Assembly: GCA_029263295.1 (NCBI GenBank)
Contig: JAJCXT010000055.1
Location: forward strand, 17,085-81,084
Length of the DNA stretch: 64,000 nucleotides
Source of the DNA: Acidobacteriota bacterium
Lineage (GTDB): Bacteria > Acidobacteriota > UBA890 > WLXD01
Direction: 5' to 3'
Shown here in pieces: positions 3,309 through 33,441 of this stretch; position 1 is the first letter of the stretch; every line of letters starts with the position of its first letter. The notes beneath the pieces are model-generated. The model ran no database searches. It was given only the letters and a program-made list of their open reading frames with translations, and had not been told where the DNA came from. The translations under genes were made by a program, and so were the position numbers.

Positions 3309-3365
3309 CGCGGCCCGGCGATCTTTTTCGAAACCCGCGCGGCAACTCGCCGTATATCTTTTACT

Positions 3366-9944: not shown

Positions 9945-10185
9945 GGGCAGGCTCCTGGACGGTGTCGGATGAGCGGAATCGATGGGCCGAGATCAATCCA
10001 CAGAAGGGGAGTCGGATATCAGTTCGAAGTATGCCAGATCGAACTGCCGCCAGACCGCGGCGCGGGAACCGCCGGACCGGCTGGCCAGTTCTGACCGCTG
10101 AGACTGATCGGCACGTTCGTCTACGTTCGTGATACTATATCCATATGTGGATATATCTAGCAGTGGGTAGAGCCGGGGTGCGGCT

Positions 10186-12861
10186 GTGAGCCCGGCAGCA
10201 CGCTGGTACGAGCGCATCCTGCGCTTGGGGCCGCGTTCGCTGCGTCGCGACTTCGGCGACGACATGGTGGCGGCATTCGACGCGATGCTCGCCGATGAGT
10301 GCGCCTCTGGGAATCCGCTACCGCGCCTGAGGGTGTGGTCGCGTGTCCTGACCGATCTGCTCGTGTCCAGCCTGAACAGCATCCGGGGCCAGTCCCCCGT
10401 GTATCGAATCCCCCGAAAGAGAACTCCCATGGAATCCCGTTTTCAGGACATTCGTTTCGCTCTGCGCACGATGCGAAGGCAGCCGCTGTTCGCCGTAGTC
10501 GCCATAGCAACGATCGCGATTGGCATCAGCGCTACCGCGACGATCTTCAGCATCGCCAACGGTCTGCTGCTTCGCGCCCCGACCGGCGTGCGCGAAAGTT
10601 CGGAACTGGTGAGCATTCACCGTGTGGCCCAGGACGAAACCGGTTTTCACTCCTTCGGACTACCCGCCTTTCGCCATCTGGCGAGCGCCGACAATGGCCT
10701 CACGAACATGGCGGCCTACGACAGCTTCGGCGGCAGCCTGGTAATCGACAGCACGCCCTATCGCGTTGCCGGCTCGATCGTATCCGCGAACTACTTCGAG
10801 ACGGTGGGCGTTCGCGCGGGCCTGGGGCGCTTCTTCTACCCCGAGGAAGACACCGTGCCCGGGCGCGACCTGGTCGCAGTGATCAGCGATCGTATGTGGC
10901 ACGAGCGCTACCGGGGGGACCCGGACATCATCGGCAGCGAGCTCGTTCTGAACGGCCGCGGGTTCGTGATTATCGGCGTGACCGAGCCTGAATTCATCGG
11001 CCACCTCGCAGCTTTCCTGAACGACGTCTGGGTCCCGTTGTCGGCTCAGGGTCTGATTCGCGGCGCGACAAACCTGTCCGAAGAAGAGGCTTCGGTCGGC
11101 CTGGAGATCGTGGCTCGTCTCGCGCCGGGGTCCAATGTGGAACTGGCCCAGGACGCCATCGACAGGGCGGGCAGCGCGTTTCATGAGCCTCGCGACGAGA
11201 AGTGGTTCGGGGCTGACGTGTACGCCTACGCGCCGATCGTGCCGATCGCACGGCAGGGGCTCAACCTGTTCCTGGCCGCCATGTTCGTGGTCGCCGGCGT
11301 GCTGCTCACCATCACCGCCGTCAACGTCGCGAACATGATGTTGTCGCGCGCCGCCGCCCGGTCGCGAGAGATCGGCGTTCGCTTGGCCCTGGGCGCCACC
11401 CGTGGCCGACTGGTCACGCAGTTGCTCACAGAGAGCGTGATTCTGTTCCTCTGCGGCGGTGTCCTCGGAACGCTCATCACGGTCTGGACAACCGGCCTGC
11501 TGGGGAGCCTCGCCCTGCCAATTCCGATCCCGATGGACCTGCATTTCGCGCCGGATTTTCGAGTCCTGGCGTTCGCGCTCACGATGGCGGCCACCACCGG
11601 CATCGCGTTCGGGTTGTCGCCCGCACTGCACGCCACGCGTGGTGACCTCACCGGCGCGCTCAAGGAGAACGGCACGCCACCACGGCGCCGTCAACGACTG
11701 CGCAGCGTTCTGGTAGTCACGCAGGTGGCCGGCTCCGCATTGCTGCTGGTCGTCGCGGGGTTGCTGATTCGCTCGGCCGGGCGCGTCACCTCACTCGACC
11801 TCGGGCTCGACACCAACGATGTCCACGCGTTCATGCTCGATACCCGCGAGGCGAATCGATCGCCGGACGAGAGTCGGCAGTTCTACGGAACCCTCCTGAA
11901 CGACGCGGCGAGCTTCTCAGGCGTCGACTCGATTGGTGCCATCGATGTCCCTCCGTTGACCGGCAGCAACCAGCAGAGCACGGTGATCCTGCCGGACATG
12001 CCGCCGGAGCCAGAGGTGGGCCTGCGCAAGGTGGAGTTCGCGCAGGTCTCCCCCAGCTACCTCGCCACAATGCGCATCCCGCTGGTGGCCGGCCGCCAGT
12101 TCAGCGACGCCGACACGGCCGACACGCCCAAGGTCGTCATCGTGAACGAGCATCTGGCGAATACCTTCTGGCCCGGTGAGAGCGCCGTCGGCAAGCGTTT
12201 CGCCTTCCGGGCAGCGAACGATCCGATCGACCTCGAGATCGTTGGGGTGGCCCGCGACAGCAAGATCCGAACGCCCGGCGATCAGGCCCGACCTCTGGTC
12301 TACGGCCACTGGGAGCAGTTCGGCGGCCGCGGGTACACGGTTGTGGCGCGCGTCGAGAGCCCGTCCGTGGCACTGATGATCCGCGACTACGTCAGCGAGA
12401 TCGACCCGGTACTGCCGCCGGCGCAGCCCATCGAGTACGCCGAACTAGTGGGCCTGTCATTGCTGCCGGCGAAGATCGCGACGATTCTCGCCACAGTGTT
12501 CGGCGCGGCGGGCCTGCTTCTCGTAGCACTGGGCCTCTACGGCCTTCTAGCCTATTCGGTAGCCCAGCGATCACACGAGATCGGCGTGCGTATGGCGCTG
12601 GGTGCTCACCAGTCCAGCGTGCGGAGCATGATCGTCGGCGACGGGCTCCGACTTACCGTGGTGGGACTCGGCATCGGTCTCCTGGCGGCCGCCGGCCTCG
12701 GCCAGCTCATTCGCTGGATGCTGTTCGGCCTGAGCCCATTCGACCCGGTCACATTCATCAGCATCGCCGTGCTGCTGTTGACCATCGCCGGCCTGGCCTG
12801 CTGGCTACCGGCGCGCCGCGCCGCGGCGACCAACCCCGTCAACGCATTGAGAGCAGAGTAA
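10186..12861 (+). CDS. MacB/FtsX-type duplicated orphan permease (ADOP family) with prefix domain (module 2)
   Basis: 891 aa with a GTG start. The prefix is 'ARWYERILRLGPRSLRRDFGDDMVAAF...LPRLRVWSRVLTDLL'. FtsX block 1 is 'NVANMMLSRAAARSREIGVRLALGA' and block 2 is 'YSVAQRSHEIGVRMALGA'. The C-terminus is 'PVNALRAE'. Confidence 0.85.
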   Translation: MSPAARWYERILRLGPRSLRRDFGDDMVAAFDAMLADECASGNPLPRLRVWSRVLTDLLVSSLNSIRGQSPVYRIPRKRTPMESRFQDIRFALRTMRRQPLFAVVAIATIAIGISATATIFSIANGLLLRAPTGVRESSELVSIHRVAQDETGFHSFGLPAFRHLASADNGLTNMAAYDSFGGSLVIDSTPYRVAGSIVSANYFETVGVRAGLGRFFYPEEDTVPGRDLVAVISDRMWHERYRGDPDIIGSELVLNGRGFVIIGVTEPEFIGHLAAFLNDVWVPLSAQGLIRGATNLSEEEASVGLEIVARLAPGSNVELAQDAIDRAGSAFHEPRDEKWFGADVYAYAPIVPIARQGLNLFLAAMFVVAGVLLTITAVNVANMMLSRAAARSREIGVRLALGATRGRLVTQLLTESVILFLCGGVLGTLITVWTTGLLGSLALPIPIPMDLHFAPDFRVLAFALTMAATTGIAFGLSPALHATRGDLTGALKENGTPPRRRQRLRSVLVVTQVAGSALLLVVAGLLIRSAGRVTSLDLGLDTNDVHAFMLDTREANRSPDESRQFYGTLLNDAASFSGVDSIGAIDVPPLTGSNQQSTVILPDMPPEPEVGLRKVEFAQVSPSYLATMRIPLVAGRQFSDADTADTPKVVIVNEHLANTFWPGESAVGKRFAFRAANDPIDLEIVGVARDSKIRTPGDQARPLVYGHWEQFGGRGYTVVARVESPSVALMIRDYVSEIDPVLPPAQPIEYAELVGLSLLPAKIATILATVFGAAGLLLVALGLYGLLAYSVAQRSHEIGVRMALGAHQSSVRSMIVGDGLRLTVVGLGIGLLAAAGLGQLIRWMLFGLSPFDPVTFISIAVLLLTIAGLACWLPARRAAATNPVNALRAE

Positions 12862-12866
12862 GCACG

Positions 12867-13175
12867 ATGAGCCAACCGTTGCGCCCGCTGGTGTTCCAGA
12901 TTCTCCTGATCCTCAACGAGGAGGAAACACACGGCTACGGAATCATGAAAGCCGTTAACGAACGCACAGGCCGTAAGACGATCCTGGGACCGGCCACGCT
13001 CTACCGCACGCTCGGACAGATGCGTGACCAGGGACTGATCGACGAGACCCCCACCGACGATGAGCGGCGCCGCGTCTACACGCTGAGCGAAGAAGGGCGC
13101 CGCATGGCCCGGGACGAGGCCGAGCGCATGGCGATGCTCGTGGAACGGGCGCGCGCCGGGCGGCTCCTTGGCTAG
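12867..13175 (+). CDS. PadR-family transcriptional regulator (subtype B; module 2, downstream of its permease)
   Basis: 102 aa with 'LVFQILLILNEEETHGYGIMKAVNERTG...LYRTLGQMRDQGLI...RRVYTLSEEG'. It lies 5 bp after the ADOP2 stop. Confidence 0.85.
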   Translation: MSQPLRPLVFQILLILNEEETHGYGIMKAVNERTGRKTILGPATLYRTLGQMRDQGLIDETPTDDERRRVYTLSEEGRRMARDEAERMAMLVERARAGRLLG

Positions 13176-13181
13176 ACGTCG

Positions 13182-14336
13182 TTAGAACGAACTCTTGAGC
13201 CAGGCGAAGACGCTACTGCCGTTGTCACCGGAGAACTGCGTTTCGGCGCCGCCAAAGAGCAACTGGCCCGCGGCCGACAGCGTGATGTTGTTCGACAGTG
13301 AATAGTCCAACCGCGGGCTGACGTAGGCAGAGTGATCGTTCGGATTGAACACCGACGCCATGCCCAGTCGAGTTAGCGGCGACAGCTGATACTGCGCCGC
13401 GACCATGACATTCCAGCGCGCCAGACTTAGCGTTCGCGCGTCGACGAAGACGGTGCCGAGAATGGGGCTGTTCCCTACCGGTTCGGTGGTCCCGAGACTG
13501 TTGTAGATGAACTCGGTAGTCAGCATGAGGCTGCTCGCGAACGTGTAGTTAGCGCCCGCCGAAGCGATGAACTGCTCGTCGGTGATCGCGCCAGTGCCCC
13601 CCGGGCCGAAGTACGTTAGCTCGCCGTTGAACCCCGCCGCGCCTAGTTGCCCGGACCACCCGAACCCGACGCCAACCGCGCCCTGGACCGACCCGGCAAG
13701 CGCCTGCACATCGTAGCCACCGACGTTGGTGCGGAACAGTCCGGCCGCTGTCACCCGGTCGTCGTAGTCCACCTTCACCGCCGCCTCGGCGGAAGACACC
13801 GGCCCAGTGTAATAGCGCACCCGCATGGAGTCGGATCCCGGCTTCTCGATATAGGTGATGTCGAAGAAGGACGCCGCGTTGAAGATGTCGTTCGGGTTCC
13901 ACACCATGTTCATGCCCCAGTTCACGCGCTGGCGGCCCGCTTGCATCTCGAGGCTGCCGCTCGTGTGCTGAATACTGAAGCGATCGAAATTCACGTAGGC
14001 GACATGATCGTTGGCCGAGCTGATCTCGTAGGTGAGATCCAGCCAGCCGGGATCGAGCGTGACGAGGTCGCCATACCCCGGAACGGACTCCACAATGCCA
14101 CCGTACGTCGTCAGGGCACGCCCCGCGGCATAGCCTTCCCAGCCATCCGTGGGATACCAGCGCAGGTCGAGCCGAGCGTTGAATTGACTGGTCAGCGGCA
14201 CCGATTCGCGCGCACCGAACACGCCAATCGCCAGGGTCTCCCAGAAACCTGACAGTTCGAAAGCCGCATTCTGGGCGTGCGCCGGCGCGGCGGCACCGAC
14301 TGCGAGCAGCAGGAACGCGAGGCGCGCTAGCCTCAT
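13182..14336 (-). CDS. Outer-membrane beta-barrel protein (porin-like), the last gene of the Lol-like ABC operon
   Basis: Signal peptide 'MRLARLAFLLLAVGAAAPAHAQ'. It has alternating amphipathic beta-strand patterns with Y/G-rich loops and a C-terminal '...AWLKSSF' with terminal Phe, typical of OMPs. Confidence 0.5.
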   Translation of the reverse strand: MRLARLAFLLLAVGAAAPAHAQNAAFELSGFWETLAIGVFGARESVPLTSQFNARLDLRWYPTDGWEGYAAGRALTTYGGIVESVPGYGDLVTLDPGWLDLTYEISSANDHVAYVNFDRFSIQHTSGSLEMQAGRQRVNWGMNMVWNPNDIFNAASFFDITYIEKPGSDSMRVRYYTGPVSSAEAAVKVDYDDRVTAAGLFRTNVGGYDVQALAGSVQGAVGVGFGWSGQLGAAGFNGELTYFGPGGTGAITDEQFIASAGANYTFASSLMLTTEFIYNSLGTTEPVGNSPILGTVFVDARTLSLARWNVMVAAQYQLSPLTRLGMASVFNPNDHSAYVSPRLDYSLSNNITLSAAGQLLFGGAETQFSGDNGSSVFAWLKSSF

Positions 14337-14337
14337 G

Positions 14338-15024
14338 TCAATGCGCCGTCGAATCGCTCACGACCTTGCCGTCGTCGAGCGCTACTACCCGTCGCGCTTT
14401 GTCGATGACGCGTTGGTCATGCGTGGCAAACACGAAGGTGACGCCGCTCTGGCGGTTCATCTCGAGCATCATGTCGAGCAGATCTTCGGTCGCGTGCGAG
14501 TCGAGATTGGCCGTGGGCTCGTCCGCGAGCACGAACTCCGGCTTCGAGGCGAGCGAGCGCGCGACCGCGACGCGTTGCTGCTGACCACCGGACATCAGCG
14601 CCGGCCGAACTTCGGCCTTCTCGGCAATGCCGACCGCTTCGAGCAGCTCGCGCGACCGCACGGAGCGATCCGCCTTGTCCACGCCCTGCAGTTCCATGAT
14701 GAACTCGATGTTCTCGCGCGCCGTCAGTACCGGGATCAGGTTGTAGGCCTGAAAGACGAACCCGATCCGGAGAAGGCGAAAGTCCGTGAGTTCACGATCG
14801 CTCATGCTGTCGATGCGCGTGCCGCCAATAAGAATCTCGCCCGACGTCACGGAATCGAGTCCACCCACCATGTTCAGGAGCGTCGTCTTGCCGCATCCGG
14901 AGGGCCCGATGATGGCCGTGAACTCGCCCTTCTCGACCTGCAGGTTGATGCCATTCACGGCGTGAACCGGCACACCGTTGCCCTCGTAGGTCTTGTACAC
15001 ATCGCGAGCGTCAATTACGGGCAC
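14338..15024 (-). CDS. ABC transporter ATP-binding protein, LolD/MacB type
   Basis: Walker A is 'GPSGCGKTT'. It has the Q-loop, the signature 'MSGGQQQRVAVARSL', Walker B 'FVLADEPT' and the H-loop 'ATHD'. It is the only ABC ATPase in the window. Confidence 0.9.
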   Translation of the reverse strand: MPVIDARDVYKTYEGNGVPVHAVNGINLQVEKGEFTAIIGPSGCGKTTLLNMVGGLDSVTSGEILIGGTRIDSMSDRELTDFRLLRIGFVFQAYNLIPVLTARENIEFIMELQGVDKADRSVRSRELLEAVGIAEKAEVRPALMSGGQQQRVAVARSLASKPEFVLADEPTANLDSHATEDLLDMMLEMNRQSGVTFVFATHDQRVIDKARRVVALDDGKVVSDSTAH

Positions 15025-15036
15025 TGCTTTCCCCTA

Positions 15037-16257
15037 TCAAGTGTCGGCTCGGATCGCCTCGGCCGGCAGCAGTTTCAGCGCGCGGCGAGCGGGATAGATA
15101 GACGCGATGAATGCGGTCACCAGGACCATGGCCGCGACCTTGAAGTAGAACGTCGTGGTGCTCTCGGGATAGACGATCGGGTCGTAGCCAATGGCCCTGA
15201 ACCCATCCGAGTAAGCCTGCAGGTTCAACCCCACTCGCTGCGTGTAACCCACCACGGCAACGCTGAGCGCGATGCCCGCGATACCACCGACCATCGACAG
15301 GAACGCGGTCTCGTACAGCAGCATCCGGAATACCCGTACGCGTGCCATTCCGAGAGCCATCAGCATGCCGATCTCACGGGTGCGCTCCATCACCACCATC
15401 AGCATCGTGTTGACGATGCCAAAGCCGAGGGCGGTCAGGATGATCGCCAGGAACCCGTACCCGAACGCTCCGGTGAAGTCAGCGGTCAACTGGAGCAGCG
15501 GCGAGAGGTCCCGCCATGTCCGCACGAGGAACTCCGGGTGGGCCTCGGCGACCGCCTCGGCGACTTCCAGCGTGGCATCACGCGGCTCCACGCGAACAAT
15601 GATCTCCGAGGCTGCGCCGGCGGCAAAACCCGTCAACTCTGCGAGATCTTGCTGCGTGACGAACACATTGGCGCCGTCGAACATACTGTTGATGGTCTCG
15701 AAGATCCCGACCACGCGAAAGGCACCGTAGACGATCTCTCCGGTCGGGCTCACGACGGACGCGACCACGCGCGACCGCAGCCGGACCTCGAGATCCTCGG
15801 CGGTCTCGCGGCTCATCAACATCGGGATGCGTTCGTCGGCGCTGAGGTACTCGCCCTCCACCAGTTTCTCCGCGAGGTCCGAGACCTCGCCAACGTGCTC
15901 GAGATCCACGCCCGCGATGCGCACGGCCGCGGTGCCCTCGGCGCTGCTGACCATCGCCGTCCCGACGATGCGCGACGACACCCCGACCACGCTGGGTAAC
16001 TGGCGAATCTCGTCCACCAGGACGTCGACATCGTCGAGTGCGTAACGCAGGTCGCGGTCGGCGGGGTACTCGGGATGGTGCACCTGGAAGTTGCCGAGCT
16101 CGGTACGGAGCGTGCCGCGAATCTGCTGGTTGGCGAGCCCCATCATGAGGGCGTAGCTGAACACACCACCAAGAAGGCCAAAGGCGATGGCCGAGGCAAT
16201 GACGAGGCTGCGCAGGCGGTTGCGCCAGACGTTGCGCCAGGCGATGTGCCACAGCAT
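15037..16257 (-). CDS. FtsX-family ABC permease (LolC/LolE-like)
   Basis: 406 aa. It has 'MLWHIAWRNVWRNRLRS' with TM1, a periplasmic domain, and C-terminal FtsX 'MERTREIGMLMALGMAR...' with 3 TM helices. Confidence 0.85.
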   Translation of the reverse strand: MLWHIAWRNVWRNRLRSLVIASAIAFGLLGGVFSYALMMGLANQQIRGTLRTELGNFQVHHPEYPADRDLRYALDDVDVLVDEIRQLPSVVGVSSRIVGTAMVSSAEGTAAVRIAGVDLEHVGEVSDLAEKLVEGEYLSADERIPMLMSRETAEDLEVRLRSRVVASVVSPTGEIVYGAFRVVGIFETINSMFDGANVFVTQQDLAELTGFAAGAASEIIVRVEPRDATLEVAEAVAEAHPEFLVRTWRDLSPLLQLTADFTGAFGYGFLAIILTALGFGIVNTMLMVVMERTREIGMLMALGMARVRVFRMLLYETAFLSMVGGIAGIALSVAVVGYTQRVGLNLQAYSDGFRAIGYDPIVYPESTTTFYFKVAAMVLVTAFIASIYPARRALKLLPAEAIRADT

Positions 16258-16260
16258 CGC

Positions 16261-17481
16261 CTACCTCCCGGTGATGGCGCGCATGATGTGCAGGCGCCGG
16301 ATGGAGACGATCGGGAAGGAGGCAACGACCAACGCCATCACCAGAACCACGAGTCCCTGCGCCACGAAGATGCCAGGATCGAGCGCAAAGGGGATGAACG
16401 GCGGGATGTTGAACTCCTCGAAGACCGTCACCAGATCGCCCGTCACCGGTATCGGATGGAGGTGAAACCAGTAGATGATCGGCATCGAGACAATCAACCC
16501 CGCCACCACGCCGACGACGACCAGCGCGATGGTCTCGATGAACAGCACCATCGCCAACCTGCTCCTGCGCAGACCCACGGCGTTCATCACGCCAAACTCG
16601 CGCCGGCGCTCCATCGTGCTCATGAGCACGGTGCCCAGCAGCCCGAATCCGGCCACCATGTAGAGAATCCCCAGCATGAAGATGCCGCCCGCGCTGTCCG
16701 ACTGAATCTGCTGCACGACCTCCTTCGACGTTTCACGCCAGGTCATCACCTCGTAGTCGGTGCCGAGTATGGCGACGAGTGCGTCCGCGGTTACCTGCAA
16801 CGCGCCGCCGTTGTCGAGCATCACGGACAGTGAGGTCACCTGGTCAGGCGGAGCGGCGTACAGCTCACGCGCCGCGGCCAGGGGCACGTACGCCATGCCG
16901 GTCTCGAGGTTGCCCATCATCGTGAGATCGAAGATCCCGATCACCGGCAGGAGGTCCGCGGCCGTCTGACCACGATACCCGGCCCCGAGTAGCACCACCT
17001 CATCGCCAACTGTCGCGCCGAGGTAGTCGGCGAGGCTGCGCAGGAGGAGCACTCCGCGCTGGCCCGCGGCAAGATAGTCCCCTTCGACCACGCGGTCGGC
17101 GAGCGAAGTGTAGCGATGCTCCACCGCCGGTTCCGTCCCGATGACGGCCGACGGCTTGGTGCGGTCACCGAACGAGATCAGAGCGAACGACTCCAGGCGC
17201 GGAATGACGTCGACCACACCCTCTACCGTCATCACCTGGCCGAGCGTCGCAGCGTCGGCGTGGATCGACCGGTCGATGGACTTGTTGTCCCAGTAGCCCT
17301 CCCCGTGCACCTGAATGTAGCCGGTCCTCGCCACCGTCGAGCCGATCATGGCGTCGTAGCTGCCGTACTGCATCGAGCGCATCAGCAAGCCGAGGACCAC
17401 TGCGAGGAGGATGGTGGCCAGAGTCAACACCGACCGGCGTCGGTTCCTCCACACATTGCGCCAGGCGAGGGTCCAGAGCAT
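16261..17481 (-). CDS. FtsX-family ABC permease (LolC/LolE-like), paralogue of the preceding gene
   Basis: 406 aa. It has 'MLWTLAWRNVWRNRRRS...' and C-terminal FtsX 'MERRREFGVMNAVGLRRSR'. Confidence 0.85.
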   Translation of the reverse strand: MLWTLAWRNVWRNRRRSVLTLATILLAVVLGLLMRSMQYGSYDAMIGSTVARTGYIQVHGEGYWDNKSIDRSIHADAATLGQVMTVEGVVDVIPRLESFALISFGDRTKPSAVIGTEPAVEHRYTSLADRVVEGDYLAAGQRGVLLLRSLADYLGATVGDEVVLLGAGYRGQTAADLLPVIGIFDLTMMGNLETGMAYVPLAAARELYAAPPDQVTSLSVMLDNGGALQVTADALVAILGTDYEVMTWRETSKEVVQQIQSDSAGGIFMLGILYMVAGFGLLGTVLMSTMERRREFGVMNAVGLRRSRLAMVLFIETIALVVVGVVAGLIVSMPIIYWFHLHPIPVTGDLVTVFEEFNIPPFIPFALDPGIFVAQGLVVLVMALVVASFPIVSIRRLHIMRAITGR

Positions 17482-17484
17482 TCC

Positions 17485-18261
17485 CTACCTCACGGTGCGC
17501 ATTCGTTGCTGCGAGAAAAAGGCCTCGTCAACGTCAATGTGGAAATCGGCCGTCTCGGTGACCATGATGGTCTGGTGGCCGGGCTTCTTCGCGTCCTCCA
17601 TCACCATGCGGGTGGGAATCTCGCGGTCGTCCATCAGCTTCACGTCGCTGGCCGTGAGCCGGTTGATGAGCTCGCCGTCTTCGTCGTAGTACTCGGCTCG
17701 CAGCATGAAGTACTCGGTCTTCGCGATCCACAGCACCACACGACCCCACACGACCGGAGCCTCCGGCAGCGGCATGAGCTCGATCTGATAGGTGTCGTGA
17801 CCCTCGACGGTCTCCTGGCCAACGATCTCCTGGGTGTAGTCGATCACCAGCGAGTCGACGCGCACGAGGTCGTTGTTGGTGAAGTCGGAGCCCATCCATG
17901 ACTGGTTCATCATCGACGGGGGGATCTTCACGGAGCGTTGAACACGCGGGACCCAGTTCCACATGTCGTTCTCACGCTTGAGAAATACCTGCCCCTTGTC
18001 GCGCGCCGGCGCCGTGATCAGGATCAGGTAGTAGTCGGTGCCCAGCGACCACGACTTCATGGCCATCTCACGGGTCCAGTCAGGCCGGACGATCTGCATG
18101 CTCGCGGTCGAGTAGCTGTTGAGCCCGCGTGCAAGGTCGTTGGCGCGGCGCACCAGTTCGCGCGCGTCGAGGTCCTGCCCGGCGATGCCGGAACTGGCCG
18201 TGGCGAAGGCGGCCAGGATGAGAGCGATCAAGCCCTTCCGCGCGGATCTGGCCAACGACAT
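17485..18261 (-). CDS. LolA-like 'outer membrane lipoprotein-sorting protein' family periplasmic protein
   Basis: The start is an ATG preceded by GGAGGA ('MSLARSARKGLIALILAAFATASSGIAGQD' signal peptide). The body 'WNWVPRVQRSVKIPPSMMNQSWMGSDFTNNDLVR...' resembles the LolA-like fold family commonly encoded with FtsX/ABC exporters. Confidence 0.55.
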   Translation of the reverse strand: MSLARSARKGLIALILAAFATASSGIAGQDLDARELVRRANDLARGLNSYSTASMQIVRPDWTREMAMKSWSLGTDYYLILITAPARDKGQVFLKRENDMWNWVPRVQRSVKIPPSMMNQSWMGSDFTNNDLVRVDSLVIDYTQEIVGQETVEGHDTYQIELMPLPEAPVVWGRVVLWIAKTEYFMLRAEYYDEDGELINRLTASDVKLMDDREIPTRMVMEDAKKPGHQTIMVTETADFHIDVDEAFFSQQRMRTVR

Positions 18262-18357
18262 GGCATCCTCCACCGTTACTCGGATCGCCGGCCGCAGACG
18301 GCCGTGCTGGTTCAAGGATAACGCCAAAGAGGTGTCGCCGCTCGGATTTAGCCGGCC

Positions 18358-19350
18358 TCAATCCTGCCCGATCAGCTCGCGATTCCAGGCGACAAAGGCT
18401 CGCTCGACGTAGTCGCCGCCGAACTGCAGGAACTCTCCCAGTGGTACCGGAATTTCGTACGCGGCGGTCGCCTCGAGCGGTGTGAGGCCCCGCTCCGCCG
18501 CCCTCCGGCCAGCGCTCTCGAGGTCCTGCAGCAGGCCGAGATAATTGGCGAGCTCCGCAGCATCGCCGATCGCACCGTGACCCGGCACGTAGCGAACGCC
18601 AGCCCGGCCCAGAATCTCCTCACAGTGCCGCACCTGGTGCGAGGGAATCGCGTCGACGAAGTTAGGGAACATCTCGTTCCAGACGAGATCGCCGCAGAAC
18701 ACCACCTGATGCTCCTGGACCTCGATGGTGATATCGCTCGCAGTGTGCCCCTTCCGCGGTGTTATCCCTACCGTGACGCCGCCAAGATCGATACGGCCGT
18801 TCGCTTCTTCGTTCAGCGTCTGCCCGGGCAGCAACGGCTCTTCACCGGCTGCCATGAGTGCCTTGGTGGTGGGTGTGGAGTACACGAACTGCGAGCTGGA
18901 TACTGCGCCGGGAAGACCGTGGCAGTGGTCGCCGTGAAAGTGGGTCACCACGACATGGGTCGGGCGCTCGCCGGTCAGGCGTTCCGAGTGCTCGGCCACC
19001 CACGCCGCACCCTCGTCGCTCATATATCCCTCGATGTGAAGCAGGCCTTGCGACCCCAGCACGATTCCGCCATTGGACGTCGTCTCAAAGTGGGTGGTGC
19101 CATTCTTCAGCGGCGTCGAGATGACCGCCCAGACGCCTTCGCCGAGCTTCTCGATCCGTGCAAAGTCCGATTCCGCGACCACTTGGCCGCTCACCCGAGA
19201 GCCATACGCGCGCCGGGCCGTCAACGGTACCGCCGCCAGTCCTGCCGCCAGATAGCCGGCGCAACTGCCCGACAGCCGCACAAAGTCACGCCGGGTCCAC
19301 TCACCCGACCCGATCGATGGCTGTTCGGCGTGCTCGATGGCGGTCTTCAA
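18358..19350 (-). CDS. MBL-fold metallo-hydrolase, Tat-secreted
   Basis: A TTG start has GGAGAG 7 nt upstream. The twin-arginine signal is 'RRDFVRLSGSCAGYLAAGLAAVPLTA'. The metal motif is 'THFHGDHCHG', followed by 'PGHG'. The longer track ORF (to 19635) would overlap the divergent PadR. Confidence 0.75.
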   Translation of the reverse strand: MKTAIEHAEQPSIGSGEWTRRDFVRLSGSCAGYLAAGLAAVPLTARRAYGSRVSGQVVAESDFARIEKLGEGVWAVISTPLKNGTTHFETTSNGGIVLGSQGLLHIEGYMSDEGAAWVAEHSERLTGERPTHVVVTHFHGDHCHGLPGAVSSSQFVYSTPTTKALMAAGEEPLLPGQTLNEEANGRIDLGGVTVGITPRKGHTASDITIEVQEHQVVFCGDLVWNEMFPNFVDAIPSHQVRHCEEILGRAGVRYVPGHGAIGDAAELANYLGLLQDLESAGRRAAERGLTPLEATAAYEIPVPLGEFLQFGGDYVERAFVAWNRELIGQD

Positions 19351-19468
19351 ATTGACTCTCCTGGCTGGCCGTGGCGGCAGTCCGGTGGCATCCGGGCTCG
19401 TGAGACGCACTCTATTGCCTCTCGAGCCCGGCCTCAATTGTGGTCGCCGGCGCCAAGATGATGTATTT

Positions 19469-19483
19469 TTCTTGAAACAAGAA
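19469..19483. promoter_or_regulatory. Perfect inverted repeat TTCTTG-AAA-CAAGAA in the AT-rich divergent intergenic region (candidate PadR-3 operator)
   Basis: 'ttcttgaaacaagaa' lies 28 bp upstream of the PadR-3 ATG. It overlaps a TTGAAA -35-like hexamer and sits in a 45-bp AT-rich island. Confidence 0.5.
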
Positions 19484-19510
19484 TAAACCCCCTCCGTATG
19501 GAGATAGACC

Positions 19511-19849
19511 ATGACTCGTTCCGCAGCACTCAATGACGTCGAACAGTTTGTTCTACTGGCACTCTTGCGCCTCGGCGAGAACGCGTACGGGGTCCCGATC
19601 CGGGCAGAGATCGAGGAGCGAGCCGACCGCGCCATCTCGATGGCTGCCGTCTACGCAGCTCTGGACCGCATGCAGCGCGGTGGACTGATCGCAGCACAAC
19701 TTTCCGAGCCGCGCCCCGAGCGTGGCGGCCGCGCCCGCAAGCATTTTCGTTTACGTCCGGCAGGCACCCGCGCACTCGAGGACGCCCGCGGCGCGATGGA
19801 TCGCATGTGGGATGGCGTCGATCTGCCAACGGACGCGGAGGCACGGTGA
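19511..19849 (+). CDS. PadR-family transcriptional regulator (subtype A; module 3)
   Basis: 112 aa with 'LGENAYGVPIRAEIEERADRAISMAAVYAALDRMQRGGLI...ERGGRARKHFRL'. It is closest to PadR-1. Confidence 0.85.
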   Translation: MTRSAALNDVEQFVLLALLRLGENAYGVPIRAEIEERADRAISMAAVYAALDRMQRGGLIAAQLSEPRPERGGRARKHFRLRPAGTRALEDARGAMDRMWDGVDLPTDAEAR

Positions 19850-22542
19850 CCGCTCGCCCACCCCGCCTCGCGTCTTGGCTGCTGCGCCGGGTTCTGGACC
19901 CGCGGCAGCGCGAGTACATCCTCGACGACCTGGCAGAGGACTACGATCGGCGCCGCCGCATGGCCGGGCTGCCGCGAACGTACTTCTGGTACTGGTCCGA
20001 AACCGTTCGCTCGATCAGGCCGAGTCTGCGCGCCCGCGCCAACAGCAACCGAAGCCGTTATCCCCACAACGGAATCAAATCGATGGACATCTTCTTCGCC
20101 GACCTGAAACAGTCTGCTCGCCGCTTGCTCAAGACACCCGCGTTTACCGTCGCCGCGGTGATCACGCTGGCGTTGGGTCTCGGCGCCAACGTCGCGATCT
20201 TCACTCTGGTCAACGGAATTGTTCTACGGCCGCTGCCGTACCCGGAGCCGGAACGCCTGGTCTCGATCCGCCATACAGCGCCCGGCCTCGGTCTTGACCT
20301 GATGGAAATGTCGATGGGCACGTACGTCCACTTCATGGCGAACGCCAACCTGGTGGAGTCTGCGGGCCTTCTGGTGAACGCCGGCGTGAACCTCACGGGC
20401 GACGGCGCCCCTGAGCGACTCGAAGGCGCGAGCGTGAACCATACCTTCCTACCGACGCTTGGCGTCAAGCCGGTGCTCGGACGCACTTTCACGGCGGAGG
20501 ACGACCGCGTCGACACGCCGTCCAACGTCATCATCAGCCATGCGCTTTGGCAGCAACGTTTCGGCGGAGATCCGGATATCGTCGGCAACCTGATCAAGCT
20601 GCAGGGGAAGACGCGCGAGATTATCGGCGTGATGCCAGAAGGGTTCGCCTACCCTTCGCGCGGCGTGTCGGTCTACTTACCGATGAAGGTGCCCGAATCG
20701 GATATTCGGTTCGGCGGCTTCTTCCGCAAGGGCATAGCCCGGCTGAAGCCGGGCGTGACTCCGGAACAGTTCGCGGCCGAACTCACGGCCCTGATCCCGT
20801 CGCTGGGCGCCGCCTATGACGTACCGGCGACGATGCTCGAGGAGGCCCAGGTCGGCGCGCTGGTCGACCCGCTCAAGGAGCGCTTTCTCGGCAACATCGA
20901 GCAGCCGCTCACGATTCTGTTCGGCACCGTCGGCTTCGTGCTCCTGATCGCCTGCGCCAACGTCGCCAATCTCTTCCTGGTACGGGCGGAGGGACGGAAC
21001 AAGGAGGTGGCCGTGCGTCGCGCTCTGGGTTCGTCGCGAGTACGGCTGAGCACGCTGTTCTTGCTCGAGGCGGTGCTGCTCGGCGGTGTGGGCGGTCTGG
21101 GCGGCCTCGCTGTGGCCTGGATCGGCGTGCGCGCGGTACAGCTATCTGGTGTGAGCCTGCCACGCATCGATCAGGTCAGCATCGACGGCCGCGTGATCCT
21201 GTTCGCTGCCGGTGCGAGCATGCTGTCGACGCTGTTGTTCGGGGCAATCCCTGCGCTTCGTCTGGCCCGGCGCGACCTGGATCGAGCCCTGAACGACGAG
21301 AGCCGTGGCACCACGCTGAGCCGCGGTCGCCACCGCGCCCGCAACCTGCTGGTCGGCGCGCAGATCGCGCTGGCGTTGATGCTCCTCGTCGGCTCGGCCT
21401 TGATGGCACAGAGTTCCTGGCGCCTCGCCAACGTCGACCCCGGCTATCGAACTGAGAACCTGCTCACCGCCCAGGTACTACTTCCCGGCGCAGACTACCC
21501 GACCGAGGAGGACGTAGTCGCCTTCTACAGCCAGGTGGTTGAGCGAGTGGAAGCCATCCCCGCTGTTGTCTCGGCGGCTGCCAGCAGCGAGGTGCCTCTG
21601 CATCCGGGCCAGGGACGCTGGGACGCGCTGTATGTCGAGGGTGCCGCCCTCGATCCCAACACCCTGCCGCCCGTGGTGATCTTCCGCTACGTGACCGCGG
21701 GGTATTTCAACACGCTCGGCATTCCGCTCGTGCGGGGCCGCGGCTTCGTGCCCACCGACGCGGTCGAAGGTAACGCTGCGGCGCTAGTCAGCGAATCGAT
21801 CGCACGCGACTTCTGGCCCGATGGCCCCGCCCTCGGCGGCCGCGCCTGGCAAGACGTGCCCCCCGACGAAGAGCCGATGCCGCACTACACCGTGGCCGGC
21901 ATCGTGGGTGACACGCTCGATCAGGATCTCGCCGACGAGCCGACATCGATCCTCTACTACCCGGTTCTGGAACAGGGCGCCGGCAACCTGCACTGGGTGC
22001 CCTCGCAGCTGACCGTGATCGCCCGCACCGACGGCGATGCGCTGGCGCAGGCCGAGGCCCTCCGCCGCGCGATCTGGTCGCTCGACTCGAATCTGCCGAT
22101 CGCCAACATCCGCACGATCGCCTCGATTGTGAACGAATCGACGCTGAACACCCGGTTCACCATGACCCTCCTGGTGCTGGCGGCCGGAATCGCGCTCTTC
22201 CTCGGCGGCATCGGCCTGTACGGAACGATCTCGTACATCGTCAGTCAACGGACCCGTGAAATTGGCGTGCGCATGGCGCTGGGCGCGGCCCGGAACGACG
22301 TAGCCAACATGGTCCTGCGGCAGGGCAGTCGCGTCGCGGTCATGGGTCTGAGCGTCGGGATGGTGGCCGCACTTGCGCTGGCCCGGGTTCTCGACAGCCT
22401 CCTGTACGAGATCAGCTCGACCGACCCTGCAACCTACATCGCGATGGCGGCCCTGCTCCTGGTCGTCGCGACGCTGGCCACCTATATCCCCGCCCGCCGG
22501 GCGGCCCGGCTCGACCCCTTGGAGGGGTTGCGTGCCGAGTAG
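19846..22542 (+). CDS. MacB/FtsX-type duplicated orphan permease (ADOP family) with prefix domain (module 3)
   Basis: The GTG start at 19846 overlaps the PadR-3 TGA stop (GTGA). The prefix 'PPRLASWLLRRVLDPRQREYILDDLAEDY...TYFWYWSETVRSI' is homologous to the ADOP1 prefix. FtsX block 1 is 'NVANLFLVRAEGRNKEVAVRRALGS' and block 2 is 'YIVSQRTREIGVRMALGA'. The C-terminus is 'PLEGLRAE'. Confidence 0.85.
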   Translation: MTARPPRLASWLLRRVLDPRQREYILDDLAEDYDRRRRMAGLPRTYFWYWSETVRSIRPSLRARANSNRSRYPHNGIKSMDIFFADLKQSARRLLKTPAFTVAAVITLALGLGANVAIFTLVNGIVLRPLPYPEPERLVSIRHTAPGLGLDLMEMSMGTYVHFMANANLVESAGLLVNAGVNLTGDGAPERLEGASVNHTFLPTLGVKPVLGRTFTAEDDRVDTPSNVIISHALWQQRFGGDPDIVGNLIKLQGKTREIIGVMPEGFAYPSRGVSVYLPMKVPESDIRFGGFFRKGIARLKPGVTPEQFAAELTALIPSLGAAYDVPATMLEEAQVGALVDPLKERFLGNIEQPLTILFGTVGFVLLIACANVANLFLVRAEGRNKEVAVRRALGSSRVRLSTLFLLEAVLLGGVGGLGGLAVAWIGVRAVQLSGVSLPRIDQVSIDGRVILFAAGASMLSTLLFGAIPALRLARRDLDRALNDESRGTTLSRGRHRARNLLVGAQIALALMLLVGSALMAQSSWRLANVDPGYRTENLLTAQVLLPGADYPTEEDVVAFYSQVVERVEAIPAVVSAAASSEVPLHPGQGRWDALYVEGAALDPNTLPPVVIFRYVTAGYFNTLGIPLVRGRGFVPTDAVEGNAAALVSESIARDFWPDGPALGGRAWQDVPPDEEPMPHYTVAGIVGDTLDQDLADEPTSILYYPVLEQGAGNLHWVPSQLTVIARTDGDALAQAEALRRAIWSLDSNLPIANIRTIASIVNESTLNTRFTMTLLVLAAGIALFLGGIGLYGTISYIVSQRTREIGVRMALGAARNDVANMVLRQGSRVAVMGLSVGMVAALALARVLDSLLYEISSTDPATYIAMAALLLVVATLATYIPARRAARLDPLEGLRAE

Positions 22543-22564
22543 CCCGTTACGAGCGTTGCGAACG

Positions 22565-22885
22565 TCAGTCCTTGGACGAGTCCATGAGCGACTTCAGCGC
22601 CACCACTAGCGCGGCAGGCCCGACGAACGCTGCTAGATTCGAGGCGATCCCACTGATCGCCCGTCCGATCTCGGGCAGCCCGCCGAGCGACGACGACGTC
22701 ATCATCAACGCTATCGCGGCAATGAGAAATCCGCCGCTTTCCTCATCGGTGATGTTCATGAAGCCGACGATCAATCCGAGGACCGCCAGGATCAGGTAGC
22801 CATTCGGAACGCTCGCGAACGCCATGATCACGGCGATGGCAACGCCACCCATGAACGCATACTTGCCGATGTTTCCCACACACAC
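22565..22885 (-). CDS. Small hypothetical membrane protein
   Basis: 106 aa, glycine-rich and hydrophobic: 'GGVAIAVIMAFASVPNGYLILAVLGLIVGF...GGFLIAAIALMM...AFVGPAALVVAL'. It converges on ADOP3. No family is recognised. Confidence 0.35.
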   Translation of the reverse strand: MCVGNIGKYAFMGGVAIAVIMAFASVPNGYLILAVLGLIVGFMNITDEESGGFLIAAIALMMTSSSLGGLPEIGRAISGIASNLAAFVGPAALVVALKSLMDSSKD

Positions 22886-23187
22886 CTCCAGGTTGGGGAG
22901 CTTGGACGTGGCCGGTGTTTACCGCGATCGTCGGAACAGCACAACCGCGAATCTCAATGGGCTCGCTCGGTGAGGCGAGTACCCGACCGTCGGGGAGCCT
23001 GGCGAAAGCCGGTCCGCAGCTATCCGATACGGTCTACCCATCCGACCTCGAGAGCGGGGGTTGAAGTTGTCGGACTGGACATTCGTCTTCGGTGTTGGAT
23101 ATATTCATGTCCGAAGATTTCAGAGCGTGGGTGCCACCGTCCCGGTCCTCTGAGAAATTGCTGCAAATCCCTCAACCGGAAGCACCC

Positions 23188-24561
23188 ATGTCCGCACATT
23201 CGAATAGACGGTTTCTTGCGCCCGCCGTCGCCCTCGTACTCCTGATCTGCGCCGCGAGCCCTACCGCCGCGCAGGAAGCGTCGGACGCGCAGGAGCGCAT
23301 CGCGATCGCCTGGGTCGACGCCTTTAACGGCGGCATTGACGCCATGGCCACGTTCCGTGCCAGCCACGTCGGCGAGCCCGACAGGGCCGGCTGGCGCGAC
23401 CAGTTCGGGACGATGCGCGAGAGCCTCGGCCAACTCGAAGTCGGCGGCATCATGATCGACCAGATGAACGAGGTCATCCTCGGCCTCGGGTCCGAGAACG
23501 AAGGGCGCATGCGTTTGGTCTTCGTGTTCAACGATGCCAACAAACTCGTGAGTCTGCGGCGCGGCGAAGGCGGCAACAACGCCGTGCCGCCGCTCGAGTT
23601 GCCGGAAGACGTCGACGACCTGGACGAACGCATCGATGCGTACCTGAAGCAACTGGAAGCCGACGGCCTGCTCTCGGGCTCGGTGCTACTCGCCCGCGAT
23701 GGAAAGATCTTCTTCGAGCGCGCCTACGGCCTCGCCTCGCGTGAGTTCAACGTGCCCAACAACATCGACACGCGGTTCGATGTTGGCTCCTTCAACAAGG
23801 ACTACACCCGGCTGGCGATCATGCAGTTGCTGCAGGGCGACCGCCTCGCGCTCACCGACAAGGTCGGCGAATACCTGCCCAACTACCCGAACGATCGCGT
23901 CCGCGACGAGGTCACGATCGAGCAACTGCTCGACCACACTTCCGGGCTCGGTGACTACTTCACGCCGGAATACCTAGAGACCCCCATGGGCAGCCTGTGG
24001 GAGATCGACGACTACATTCCGATCTGGGGCCCCAAGCCGCTCGAGTACGAGCCCGGCACGCGCAAGCAGTACTCCAACTTCGGTTACACGATTCTGGGCG
24101 CCATCCTCGAGAGCATTGCCGGTGTGAGTTATCCCGAGTACGTCGAAGAGAACGTGTTCAAGCCCGCGGGGATGGACGCCACCGGGTTCTTCTCGACCGA
24201 TGGCATCGAACCCAACGTCGCGGTCGGGTACACCACCATGGACCGCATGGGTCGGCCCGGCGACAGGGTGCGCAAGAACATCTATCACGAGCCGGTCGTA
24301 GGCGGCCCGTGGGGTAAGAGCTACTCGACGGCGCGCGATCTGTTCCGTTTCTTCGAGGCGCTGTTCGCCGGCAAGCTGATCGGCGACGATCTCAACTGGC
24401 TGCCGTCCGGCTGGAACGGTGGCATGGGACTCGCTGGGGGAGGGCCAGGTCTCAGCGCGGTTCTCCTCGTCGATGACGGCGTAGCGGTGATCGTGCTGGC
24501 CAACCATGACGAGCCCGGGGCCGAGGGCGTCGGAAGGCGCCTGTTGGACGCCATTCGTTAG
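23188..24561 (+). CDS. Secreted serine hydrolase of the beta-lactamase/transpeptidase-like family
   Basis: Signal peptide 'FLAPAVALVLLICAASPTAAQ'. An N-terminal ~100-aa extra domain precedes 'SVLLARDGKIFFERAYGLA...FDVGSFNKDYT' (SxxK motif), 'YSNFGYTILG' (YxN-like) and 'ANHDE'. Confidence 0.75.
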   Translation: MSAHSNRRFLAPAVALVLLICAASPTAAQEASDAQERIAIAWVDAFNGGIDAMATFRASHVGEPDRAGWRDQFGTMRESLGQLEVGGIMIDQMNEVILGLGSENEGRMRLVFVFNDANKLVSLRRGEGGNNAVPPLELPEDVDDLDERIDAYLKQLEADGLLSGSVLLARDGKIFFERAYGLASREFNVPNNIDTRFDVGSFNKDYTRLAIMQLLQGDRLALTDKVGEYLPNYPNDRVRDEVTIEQLLDHTSGLGDYFTPEYLETPMGSLWEIDDYIPIWGPKPLEYEPGTRKQYSNFGYTILGAILESIAGVSYPEYVEENVFKPAGMDATGFFSTDGIEPNVAVGYTTMDRMGRPGDRVRKNIYHEPVVGGPWGKSYSTARDLFRFFEALFAGKLIGDDLNWLPSGWNGGMGLAGGGPGLSAVLLVDDGVAVIVLANHDEPGAEGVGRRLLDAIR

Positions 24562-24580
24562 GAGCCAGAGGCCCGCGGGG

Positions 24581-25738
24581 TCAACGCCCGTCGTGGCCGT
24601 GGCGCTCGTAGTGCTGGCGTAGCAGGTCCTTGCCGTAGTCGTTACCGTTCGGCGTGCGTACCACCGTGTGGATGTGGTTGCGCGTTGCGCCATCGGTGTC
24701 GAGCGCGATCCCTCCCTGGTGGTCGAACTCGATCAGGATGACCGGACTGTGGACGCGGTAGTAGAAGACAGAGTCGTCGCCGGTCGCGCCCATCCAGGCA
24801 AAGTGTGTGTCGTCGAGATGCTCACGCACCTCCATCATCTTGATGGCAGCGTGGCCGTCGTCCATGTTGCCGACGTACTCATTGATGAGGTCTAACAACA
24901 TCGCCGTCTGAGGCGCGTCGAGATCTGCGGCGCAAATGCCCTCGTAGTTCATCTCGAAGTTGTCGCGGAACGCGGCGGTGTAGATGCCGCGGGGCACGAC
25001 ATCGGACAGGATCGCACTCGCTCGCTGTTCGACGGTGAGCGCCTGCGCGAGCGCCAGACCCTTGGTCTGCTCGTGTTCGAAGACCCGAGTACCGGCGTAC
25101 TTGCCAGTTTCGGCCACGACGGGCTCCGACCCCATGAAGGTCGGCGTCATCACCACCTGATCGCCGAGCACAAAGTAGTTGATTACCAGATGGTGGCCAT
25201 CGAGCTGCCAACCCCACGGCTCTACCTCTGAAGGGGTGCCCATCACCGTGAAGTGATAGAGGCCCTCGCCGTACTCATCCCAGCGCTCCGTCAACTCGCG
25301 GACTGTCTGGTTGAGCCGCATGATGTCGCGCGCGTTGGCAAAGCCGCGGGCGCTAAGGCTGGCCCGGAGGAGATCCAGGGCCGCTGCCTCCTGTTCATCG
25401 CTCATCTGCCAGCGAGCAACGCCCTGGCGCTTGTAGCGGTGGACGTTGTGCCAGTCGCGCCACTCGATGCTGTCGGCCTCGAAACTGGTGGCGGCGTGCT
25501 GTTGTTCGTCGAGGCTATCGAGAAAGGTTCGCGCTGCGCCGACCACCGCTGCGGTGGAGACGCCTGTGGCGCTAATCTCGAACAGGCCAGCCTCGAGGTT
25601 GCCACCGCGCGTGACGCCCACAAAAGGCTCGGCCAGCGCGTCGGCGGCGCTGCGACGCTGCGCATCCACCGCGAGACCGGCGATCGCGAACATGCTTACG
25701 ACGCTCGCTGCCAGCACCAGGATCTTCTTCGAAAACAT
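24581..25738 (-). CDS. DUF3500-family secreted protein
   Basis: It has a signal peptide and the family motifs 'WGWQLDGHHLVINYFVLGDQVV' and 'HSPVILIEFDHQGG'. Confidence 0.7.
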   Translation of the reverse strand: MFSKKILVLAASVVSMFAIAGLAVDAQRRSAADALAEPFVGVTRGGNLEAGLFEISATGVSTAAVVGAARTFLDSLDEQQHAATSFEADSIEWRDWHNVHRYKRQGVARWQMSDEQEAAALDLLRASLSARGFANARDIMRLNQTVRELTERWDEYGEGLYHFTVMGTPSEVEPWGWQLDGHHLVINYFVLGDQVVMTPTFMGSEPVVAETGKYAGTRVFEHEQTKGLALAQALTVEQRASAILSDVVPRGIYTAAFRDNFEMNYEGICAADLDAPQTAMLLDLINEYVGNMDDGHAAIKMMEVREHLDDTHFAWMGATGDDSVFYYRVHSPVILIEFDHQGGIALDTDGATRNHIHTVVRTPNGNDYGKDLLRQHYERHGHDGR

Positions 25739-30053: not shown

Positions 30054-30170
30054 CCGCCCCGCGGCAGTGAATCCTGACTGACGGCAGTGGGTTCAGGGGT
30101 AAATAGCGCGGCTCCGGATCCAGCAGGGCACGCTCGAGGTATTCGCTTGAGTTCATGTATGTCTCTAGAC

Positions 30171-30192
30171 ATATATGATCGCGATCATATAT
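30171..30192. promoter_or_regulatory. 22-bp perfect palindrome ATATATGATCGCGATCATATAT upstream of PadR-4 (candidate operator)
   Basis: It is fully self-complementary. It lies 40 bp upstream of the PadR-4 ATG, with an adjacent TCTAGA-containing imperfect dyad at 30156-30170. Confidence 0.55.
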
Positions 30193-33359: not shown

Positions 33360-33441
33360 GCAACGGAGCCTTGCTCTGAGATCCGAAGTTCAGGGGCCCG
33401 TGGGTTTTCGGGCTGAGTCGCCGAGACTGAAGGGTAAATAA

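Follow-up and report, generated by a model that had tools for sequence, protein, structure and literature searches.

A conserved dyad upstream of acidobacterial padR-3/ADOP-3 as a probable autoregulatory operator

Two operons diverge from a 160-bp intergenic region (positions 19351–19510) in a 64,000-nucleotide (nt) stretch of Acidobacteriota DNA (contig JAJCXT010000055.1; the whole stretch is hereafter the window), and the question raised by this locus is which of them is served by the A+T-rich dyad that the region contains. On the plus strand lie padR-3 and ADOP-3, encoding a PadR-family regulator and a duplicated permease; on the minus strand lies an operon encoding a metallo-beta-lactamase (MBL)-fold hydrolase and a Lol-like ATP-binding cassette (ABC) exporter. 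The original prediction held that the dyad may co-regulate both operons, and that the exporter would give the ATPase-less permease a functional context. We find that the dyad is conserved, remains linked to the PadR–ADOP pair independently of the genes to its left, belongs to a motif class enriched near PadR homologues, and varies in sequence with the PadR recognition helix. The reading that we favour, and regard as reasonably probable, is that the dyad is an autoregulatory PadR-3 operator that overlaps the padR-3/ADOP-3 promoter; PadR-3 binding, repression, the promoter type, the transcription start, and an inducer are the parts of this reading that we infer.

Position and conservation of the dyad

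The borders of the intergenic region are as originally given. In particular, the MBL start codon is TTG at 19350, homologous to the ATG of "MKT..." in the related contig L001, and the PadR-3 start codon is ATG at 19511. The core dyad, TTCTTG-AAA-CAAGAA (TTCTTGAAACAAGAA; two 6-nt arms separated by 3 nt, hereafter 6-3-6), is located at 19469–19483, is assigned to neither strand, and is separated from the PadR-3 ATG by 27 nt. When extended, it has 9-nt arms (19466–19474 and 19478–19486) that are complementary at 8 of 9 positions. A 30-nt stretch that includes the dyad is 73% A+T, compared with about 65% G+C for the window as a whole, which bears out its description as A+T-rich.

Taken alone, the dyad could be a chance occurrence: of dinucleotide shuffles of the 160-bp region, 28% contain a perfect inverted repeat (6-nt arms, spacer of 0–10 nt), and 5% do when the test is restricted to A+T-rich arms. 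The dyad is present as a single copy in the window even at 3 mismatches (0.2 expected). It is the conservation of the dyad and its restriction to a single site in the window, and not the shuffle statistics, that lead us to treat it as real.

To gather relatives, we scanned genome and metagenome collections with the PadR protein and performed look-ups via a LolA-like homologue and PadR cluster members, and we aligned ten sequences, comprising the window and contigs L001, L002, L003, L044, L045, L124, L126, L127, and L128. All 15 nt of the dyad are identical in the nine related contigs, in which PadR is 93% (L001), 90% (L044), 86% (L045), 80% (L124), or 69% (L002 and L003) identical to that of the window, or falls in the same 90%-identity cluster (L126, L127, and L128). 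Specifically, the alignment reveals an invariant plus-strand block, TTTTCTTGAAACAAGAA-n-A-a-A (19467–19487), that comprises a T-tract, the dyad, and an A-rich tail (invariant alignment columns T27–A43, A45, and A47), with flanks that vary even among close relatives; downstream of the block, 7 variable positions are followed by the tetranucleotide CGTA, invariant in all ten sequences. The distance from the end of the dyad to the PadR ATG is 23–27 nt in every contig, and is kept whether the left neighbour is the MBL protein, a BNR/Sortilin protein, or a zf-HC2-like protein. This pattern supports the view that the dyad is under selection as a functional cis-element linked to PadR-3.

Other candidate elements in the region fared differently. 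A second, longer inverted repeat, GC-rich and likewise unassigned as to strand, is present at 19392–19404 and 19419–19431 (13-nt arms, 92% complementary), contrary to the earlier statement that the region contains only one conspicuous dyad. This repeat overlaps parts of the candidate leftward promoter described below (spacer, −10 element, and predicted start region), and we considered it as a regulator site or hairpin of the MBL operon; however, L001, L044, and L045 do not conserve it, and it is probably without function. A degenerate half-site read by eye (CAAGAT, 19454–19459) is not conserved in relatives. An Rfam search of 19200–19650 at a permissive E-value detected no riboswitch or leader, the sole match being a meaningless one to a microRNA family (E = 0.56). 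A further small dyad, CTCC-GTAT-GGAG at 19491–19503 (counterpart in L045, CTTC-CGTA-GAAG), spans the invariant CGTA and the only Shine–Dalgarno-like sequence before padR-3, GGAG, and could sequester the ribosome-binding site, provided that the region is transcribed.

The putative operator and promoter of padR-3/ADOP-3

padR-3 (19511–19849, plus strand) encodes a 112-amino-acid (aa) PadR-family regulator of the short, subfamily-2-like size class, matching PF03551 with 43.4 bits (cut-off, 27) across residues 15–90. The nearest solved structures are those of LmrR variants and Rv3488; PadR-3 aligns with LmrR across residues 12–90, and its length fits short subfamily 2. The Trp of its RMWDG motif lies 3 alignment columns off the LmrR ligand-binding Trp, and we draw no conclusion from this. 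Against TIGR03433, PadR-3 scores 31.3 bits, below the cut-off of 101.8, and all six PadR proteins of the window fall under that cut-off (31–59 bits); PadR-3 belongs to a separate PadR subgroup, shared with the PadR encoded at 6077–6403.

The partner gene, ADOP-3 (19846–22542, plus strand, GTG start), encodes a duplicated FtsX/MacB_PCD permease that matches TIGR03434 with 848 bits (cut-off, 622.3), contains two stretches each of PF12704 and PF02687, and carries an N-terminal permease prefix domain 2 (perm_prefix_2; 38.5 bits). The ADOP-3 GTG overlaps the padR-3 stop codon by 4 nt (GTGA), and the two genes are, because of this overlap, probably translationally coupled. The ADOP family is described as having no fused or adjacent ABC ATPase gene. 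No ATPase is fused to ADOP-3 or encoded in its operon, the nearest (14338–15024) belonging to the divergent operon, together with two permeases; near the ADOP-3 orthologues of L002 and L003, no ATPase gene is present within 8 kb.

The architecture of the dyad recurs beside PadR genes family-wide. We counted TTC-N9-GAA dyads of the 6-3-6 form, with at least 5 of 6 positions complementary, within 130 nt upstream of PadR homologues, taking the rate elsewhere in the same loci as the expectation: 23 sites are present upstream of 21 of the 105 non-redundant homologues, with about 0.9 sites expected. The inner bases of these operators differ by clade and vary with the N-terminal part of the recognition helix. 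In particular, TTCTTG..CAAGAA accompanies the helix SMAAVYAALDR; TTCTAC..GTAGAA accompanies S(V/I)GALYSTLDR; TTCA(C/T)T..A(T/A)TGAA accompanies AIGSVYAALER; TTCACA..TGTGAA accompanies LLGA(I/A)Y(T/A)ALDR; and TTCGAC..GTCGAA accompanies TVGSVYTTLAR. This covariation is suggestive support for a PadR operator. In contig L005, two tandem copies of TTCTACATTGTAGAA (12090–12104 and 12114–12128; 24 nt start to start) lie approximately 85–110 nt upstream of a PadR paralogue (start, 12213), and could be a double operator.

The same observations bear on the possibility that another regulator, encoded elsewhere, binds the dyad, or that the dyad has no regulatory role and is a structural or recombination site bordering a mobile PadR–ADOP cassette. 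PadR–ADOP modules do behave as insertions or deletions when the window is compared with contig L125. However, the other end of the module contains no repeat partner of the dyad, the distance from the dyad to the PadR ATG is constant, the dyad is embedded in promoter-like sequence, and its architecture both recurs beside PadR genes and covaries with the PadR recognition helix. We consider this explanation very improbable.

If the dyad is a PadR-3 operator, each half-site (TTCTTG and CAAGAA) would be occupied by one winged-helix domain of a PadR-3 dimer, and the bound dimer would block RNA polymerase, keeping the padR-3/ADOP-3 operon off. Release of PadR-3 by a ligand or signal would allow both the repressor and the permease to be made. 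The divergent MBL/Lol-like operon would lie outside this switch, with a putative sigma-70-like promoter of its own 30–47 nt away.

The conserved block also has features of a promoter. The hexamer TGAAAC (19473–19478, plus strand), inside the dyad, is a candidate −35 element of the extracytoplasmic function (ECF), sigmaW type, and the invariant CGTA (19495–19498, plus strand), exactly 16 nt past it, is a candidate −10 element. TGAAAC-N16-CGTA is invariant, including its spacing, in the ten sequences, and the sequence on either side of CGTA varies. An overlapping promoter is suggested because the asymmetric central AAA of the dyad, and a CGTA at a fixed 16 nt, would not be needed by a pure operator. 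The sigmaW-type consensus has this same 16-nt spacing. The candidate −35 hexamer and −10 tetramer are identical to those of the sigmaW-type ECF promoter consensus of Bacillus subtilis, TGAAAC and CGTA (PMC5758882). Differences from the B. subtilis promoters are that the phylum is another one and that the start codon here follows CGTA by only 8–12 nt; the match is a resemblance, not demonstrated membership.

GAAAC-N16-CGTA occurs twice in the window, compared with 0.11 copies expected. The second copy (3330–3354, plus strand) is preceded by a T-tract and ends 11 nt before the ADOP-1 ATG (3366), so that both copies sit 11–12 nt before the first start codon of a PadR/ADOP operon; in the Gemmatimonadaceae contig L032, the motif also precedes two ADOP genes, by 7 nt and 31 nt. 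No Shine–Dalgarno sequence is present before padR in L002 or L003. The padR-3/ADOP-3 promoter is most likely ECF sigmaW-like (T-tract, TGAAAC, 16 nt, CGTA), with its −35 element within the dyad, and transcription would begin a few nt before the ATG, yielding a near-leaderless mRNA. We hold this promoter assignment to be somewhat better than even.

The promoter evidence raises a further alternative, namely that the element is an ECF-type promoter only (T-tract, TGAAAC, A-rich spacer, CGTA), with an incidental palindrome and no PadR-3 binding. In favour of this alternative are the invariance of TGAAAC-N16-CGTA, its match to the sigmaW-type consensus, and the occurrences before ADOP-1 and the two L032 ADOP genes, which lack the CAAGAA arm; in addition, ECF promoter selectivity can depend on spacer sequence (PMC5758882). 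However, none of the ten sequences departs from the right arm CAAGAA or from the nAAA after it, whereas the ADOP-1 copy has an unrelated, GC-rich spacer. Moreover, related PadR genes have 6-3-6 TTC-N9-GAA dyads that lack GAAAC and lie 3–33 nt from the start codon, where they cannot be −35 elements, and the inner bases of these dyads track the recognition helix. A promoter without an operator is, on this evidence, an unlikely explanation.

Several points weigh against the operator and promoter readings. The ten orthologous sequences represent only about 2–4 independent lineages, and no TTC-N9-GAA dyad is present upstream of 84 of the 105 homologues. The background used to assess enrichment is mostly coding, GC-rich DNA, by which the enrichment is inflated, and the covariation is confounded by phylogeny, each operator class being one clade. 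The canonical PadR motif, ATGT-N8-10-ACAT (PMC3506622), is absent from the conserved block, and the ATGT at 19462–19465 is not conserved in L002, L003, L044, or L045. With respect to the promoter, the ECF reading implies a leader of approximately 1–6 nt and excludes the GGAG at 19500–19503 from the mRNA; an alternative sigma-70-like −10 element, TATTTT (19464–19469), lies just upstream of the dyad and would place the start inside it; and a scan of 19250–19600 with the sigma-70 consensus identified no promoter above threshold. On both the ECF and the sigma-70-like reading, a PadR dimer on the dyad would prevent transcription of padR-ADOP from starting.

Other promoter-related candidates were set aside. 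A rightward sigma-70-like arrangement, TTGTGG (19438–19443)-N18-TGTATT, is absent in L002 and L003, and its −35 hexamer is kept only in part of the close clade (exact in the window and L001); we retain it only as an alternative. Two minus-strand terminator-like matches at 19487–19505 were disregarded, as they lie between diverging genes. An ECF-type sigma gene (Sigma70_r2 and r4_2) is present at 53463–54146, with a probable start at ATG 53547; it has no GAAAC-N16-CGTA upstream of itself, and cannot be linked to the site as the cognate factor. It is followed by two small open reading frames with no family match (54139–54468 and 54465–54887), which could encode an anti-sigma factor.

The divergent MBL/Lol-like operon

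Were the dyad a shared operator, PadR-3 would control both divergent operons, coupling the ATPase-less ADOP-3 to the ABC exporter. Eight close-clade contigs retain the divergent layout together with the leftward promoter; the ABC operon is flanked by two PadR/ADOP modules in the window and in L124; and divergent operons with one shared operator are common among small repressors. However, these contigs are closely related to one another (PadR identity of at least 80%), and shared gene order among them carries little information. In L002 and L003, the PadR–ADOP pair (ADOP 50% identical) retains an identical dyad, and the genes that diverge from it encode first a small zf-HC2-like membrane protein and then a gamma-glutamyltranspeptidase-like product (the latter read from its translation); within 8 kb, these loci contain no gene for an MBL protein, a LolA-like protein, or an ABC ATPase. 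In L125 (LolA-like protein 79% identical), the five-gene core of the ABC operon is present without PadR–ADOP: the core lies between the beta-lactamase/DUF3500 and HHH_3 genes that flank it in the window, with no MBL gene and neither of the two PadR/ADOP modules.

The leftward genes nearest the dyad also vary: the window and L001 have only MBL, L126 has MBL together with a BNR/Sortilin protein, L124 has BNR/Sortilin and no MBL, and L125 has neither. Outside a few acidobacterial relatives at 78–88% identity, the next named LolA-like homologues are approximately 55% identical and mostly from Bacteroidota. Because of L002 and L003, L125, the variable first genes, and the Bacteroidota homologues, we conclude that the divergent arrangement is conserved only in a shallow clade: it is kept in close relatives (PadR at least 80% identical), and only there. 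As the dyad follows PadR–ADOP, and as the permease and the ABC operon each occur without the other in relatives, neither the proposed co-regulation nor the proposed functional context for ADOP-3 is upheld.

The leftward operon appears to have its own sigma-70-like promoter, an assignment made because of its conservation pattern. On the minus strand, a candidate −35 element, TTGAGG (19432–19437), and a candidate −10 element, TAGAGT (19409–19414; TACAGT in relatives), belong to a pattern, TTGAG(G/C)-N17-TA(C/G)AGT, that is kept in all 8 close-clade contigs, with a spacer that is always 17 nt and varies in sequence. The gap between the leftward −35 element and the dyad is 30, 31, 36, or 47 nt, neither constant nor in whole helical turns, and the dyad centre is at approximately −74 relative to the predicted leftward start. 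A repressor on the dyad would not cover the leftward core promoter. Three further points speak against a shared operator: the window contains no second copy of the dyad; the operon ATPase already has two cognate FtsX permeases; and ADOP genes occupy about one quarter of the window, so that adjacency to one is expected by chance. Co-regulation with the ABC exporter operon is not supported by these comparisons, and we judge a shared operator to be unlikely.

The gene content of the operon is largely as first described, in that the MBL protein, with its Tat-like motif, and the LolA-like protein, the two permeases, and the ATPase by Pfam/NCBIfam matches, are all present; the outer-membrane barrel originally assigned to the last gene is unproven. 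Specifically, the minus strand encodes the MBL-fold hydrolase, the variable first gene (18358–19350; TTG start, TRRDFV Tat-like motif), followed by a conserved five-gene core (13182–18261). The core comprises a LolA_like protein of 258 aa, as in the identical database protein P0001 (17485–18261; PF17131); two FtsX/MacB_PCD permeases (16261–17481 and 15037–16257); a LolD/MacB-like ATPase (14338–15024); and a 384-aa protein with no family match (13182–14336), for which a signal peptide and a C-terminal Phe make an outer-membrane barrel plausible. With its two FtsX/MacB_PCD permeases, LolD/MacB-like ATPase, and LolA-like periplasmic protein, the operon resembles LolCDE-LolA and MacB-type systems. 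It differs from them in that its scores all fall far short of the Lol equivalog cut-offs (ATPase, 217 against 307.75 for LolD; permeases, 100 and 89 against 362.45 for LolCE), in that its LolA-like protein belongs to PF17131 (TP_0789-like) and not to canonical LolA, and in that the operon contains no MacA-type adaptor.

Three observations concern the wider segment. In the 96-nt gap between the MBL and LolA-like genes (18262–18357), a block, TTAT(C/T)CTTGA(A/C)C, is conserved with L001 (approximately 6758–6876), and could be an internal promoter of the five-gene core. In L002, the divergent neighbour (approximately 7609–7920, minus strand; equivalent in L003) encodes approximately 100 aa with an H-x3-C-x2-C (zf-HC2, anti-sigma-like) motif, and its start codon in L002 and L003 is only about 45–60 nt from the dyad, which in that lineage could overlap the neighbour's promoter. 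Three blocks around the Lol-like core are present in the window and missing from L125, namely the ADOP-2/PadR-2 module, the MBL gene, and the PadR-3/ADOP-3 module; in L126, the extra BNR/Sortilin-Vps10 gene sits between the MBL and LolA-like genes; and in L124, the whole segment is inverted relative to a Ser/Thr kinase gene. Insertions, deletions, and rearrangements around ADOP paralogues seem to have concentrated in positions 9309–25738 of the window.

Other PadR/ADOP modules and relation to known systems

The window contains six PadR/ADOP pairs, of which modules 1 and 2 have the order ADOP–PadR (PadR at 6077–6403 and 12867–13175) and modules 3–6 the order PadR–ADOP. Module 1 comprises ADOP-1 (3366–6056), the only other ADOP of the window with a prefix-2 domain, followed by the PadR at 6077–6403, the closest paralogue of PadR-3. 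Upstream of ADOP-1, directly adjoining it, a gene at 243–3308 encodes a Ser/Thr kinase of approximately 1,000 aa with TolB-like beta-propeller repeats; the same kinase adjoins the PadR-3/ADOP-3 orthologue in L124.

Four of the five other modules have their own, different A+T-rich upstream palindrome, and module 1 has only a short one, TTTCGAAA. The palindromes are ATATCCATATGTGGATAT in module 2 (ATATCCA-TATG-TGGATAT, 10137–10154); ATGTCT-CT-AGACAT together with ATATATGATCGCGATCATATAT (30159–30192); CTCGTATACTAG-N8-CTAGTATACGAG (33442–33473); and TGTAAATC-N15-GATTTACA, enclosing GAATATATTC (36616–36646). The module 2 palindrome is conserved in L124 (approximately 17110–17135), where the flanks diverge. 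The set of palindromes suggests a private operator for each PadR/ADOP module. A 9-mer, GGGTAAATA, occurs exactly twice in the window (30097–30105 and 33432–33440), approximately 100–135 nt upstream of PadR genes (30232 and 33537), and may be a promoter or regulator element shared by modules 4 and 5.

We tentatively propose, as a possibility that we hold to be rather doubtful, that the PadR proteins of ADOP modules form an orthogonal repressor/operator set built on TTC-N9-GAA 6-3-6 operators and a helix code, and that the prefix-2 subgroup (modules 1 and 3) uses a near-leaderless ECF promoter. In such a code, the residues at the start of the recognition helix would recognise the three inner bases of each operator arm. 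In module 3, where the operator would be laid over the ECF promoter, ADOP-3 would be on only with the envelope-stress sigma factor active and PadR released, equivalent to an AND gate.

ADOP permeases are among the largest paralogue families of Acidobacteriota and related soil phyla, and their function is still unknown (PMC3914696); the literature searched contained no description of operators or promoters of PadR/ADOP modules. If correct, the proposal would be the first regulatory logic put forward for this large family, and the possible family-wide operator code, together with an ECF-type promoter common to a subgroup of ADOP modules, is its main interest. The conserved operator–promoter region offers an experimental handle, in the form of reporter and binding screens for inducers, and hence substrates, and, if the covariation holds, the family would be a source of orthogonal repressor/operator pairs. 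The analysis also removes a tempting, unsupported link between ADOP-3 and the ABC exporter.

In kind, the dyad is a real regulatory element of an ordinary sort, most likely an autoregulatory site. Short-class PadR repressors, such as LmrR and bcPadR, recognise inverted repeats within the promoters of their own genes and regulate exporters encoded next to them (PMC3506622; PMC4534193). The likeness to lmrR-lmrCD of Lactococcus lactis consists of a small PadR repressor of approximately 110 aa, an inverted repeat in its own promoter, and an adjacent membrane exporter, and extends to the structural neighbours of PadR-3 noted above, with a sequence similarity between LmrR and PadR-3 that is weak (E of about 1e-3 to 1e-4). 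The differences lie in the operator, ATGT-N8-10-ACAT for LmrR and the candidate TTCTTG-N3-CAAGAA for PadR-3; in the transporter, LmrCD being a complete ABC exporter with ATPase domains and ADOP-3 a duplicated MacB/FtsX-type permease with no ATPase; and in the arrangement, the padR-3 and permease genes overlapping by 4 nt in one operon. The likeness to TIGR03433/TIGR03434 pairs is that a PadR gene adjoins an ADOP permease, many paralogous pairs are present in one genome, and ADOP-3 scores above the TIGR03434 cut-off; PadR-3 differs in falling far below the TIGR03433 cut-off, and both ADOPs of its subgroup carry permease prefix domain 2. The padR-3/ADOP-3 system differs from known PadR systems, then, by its operator motif, by its probable promoter type, and by a PadR-3 score below the TIGR03433 cut-off.

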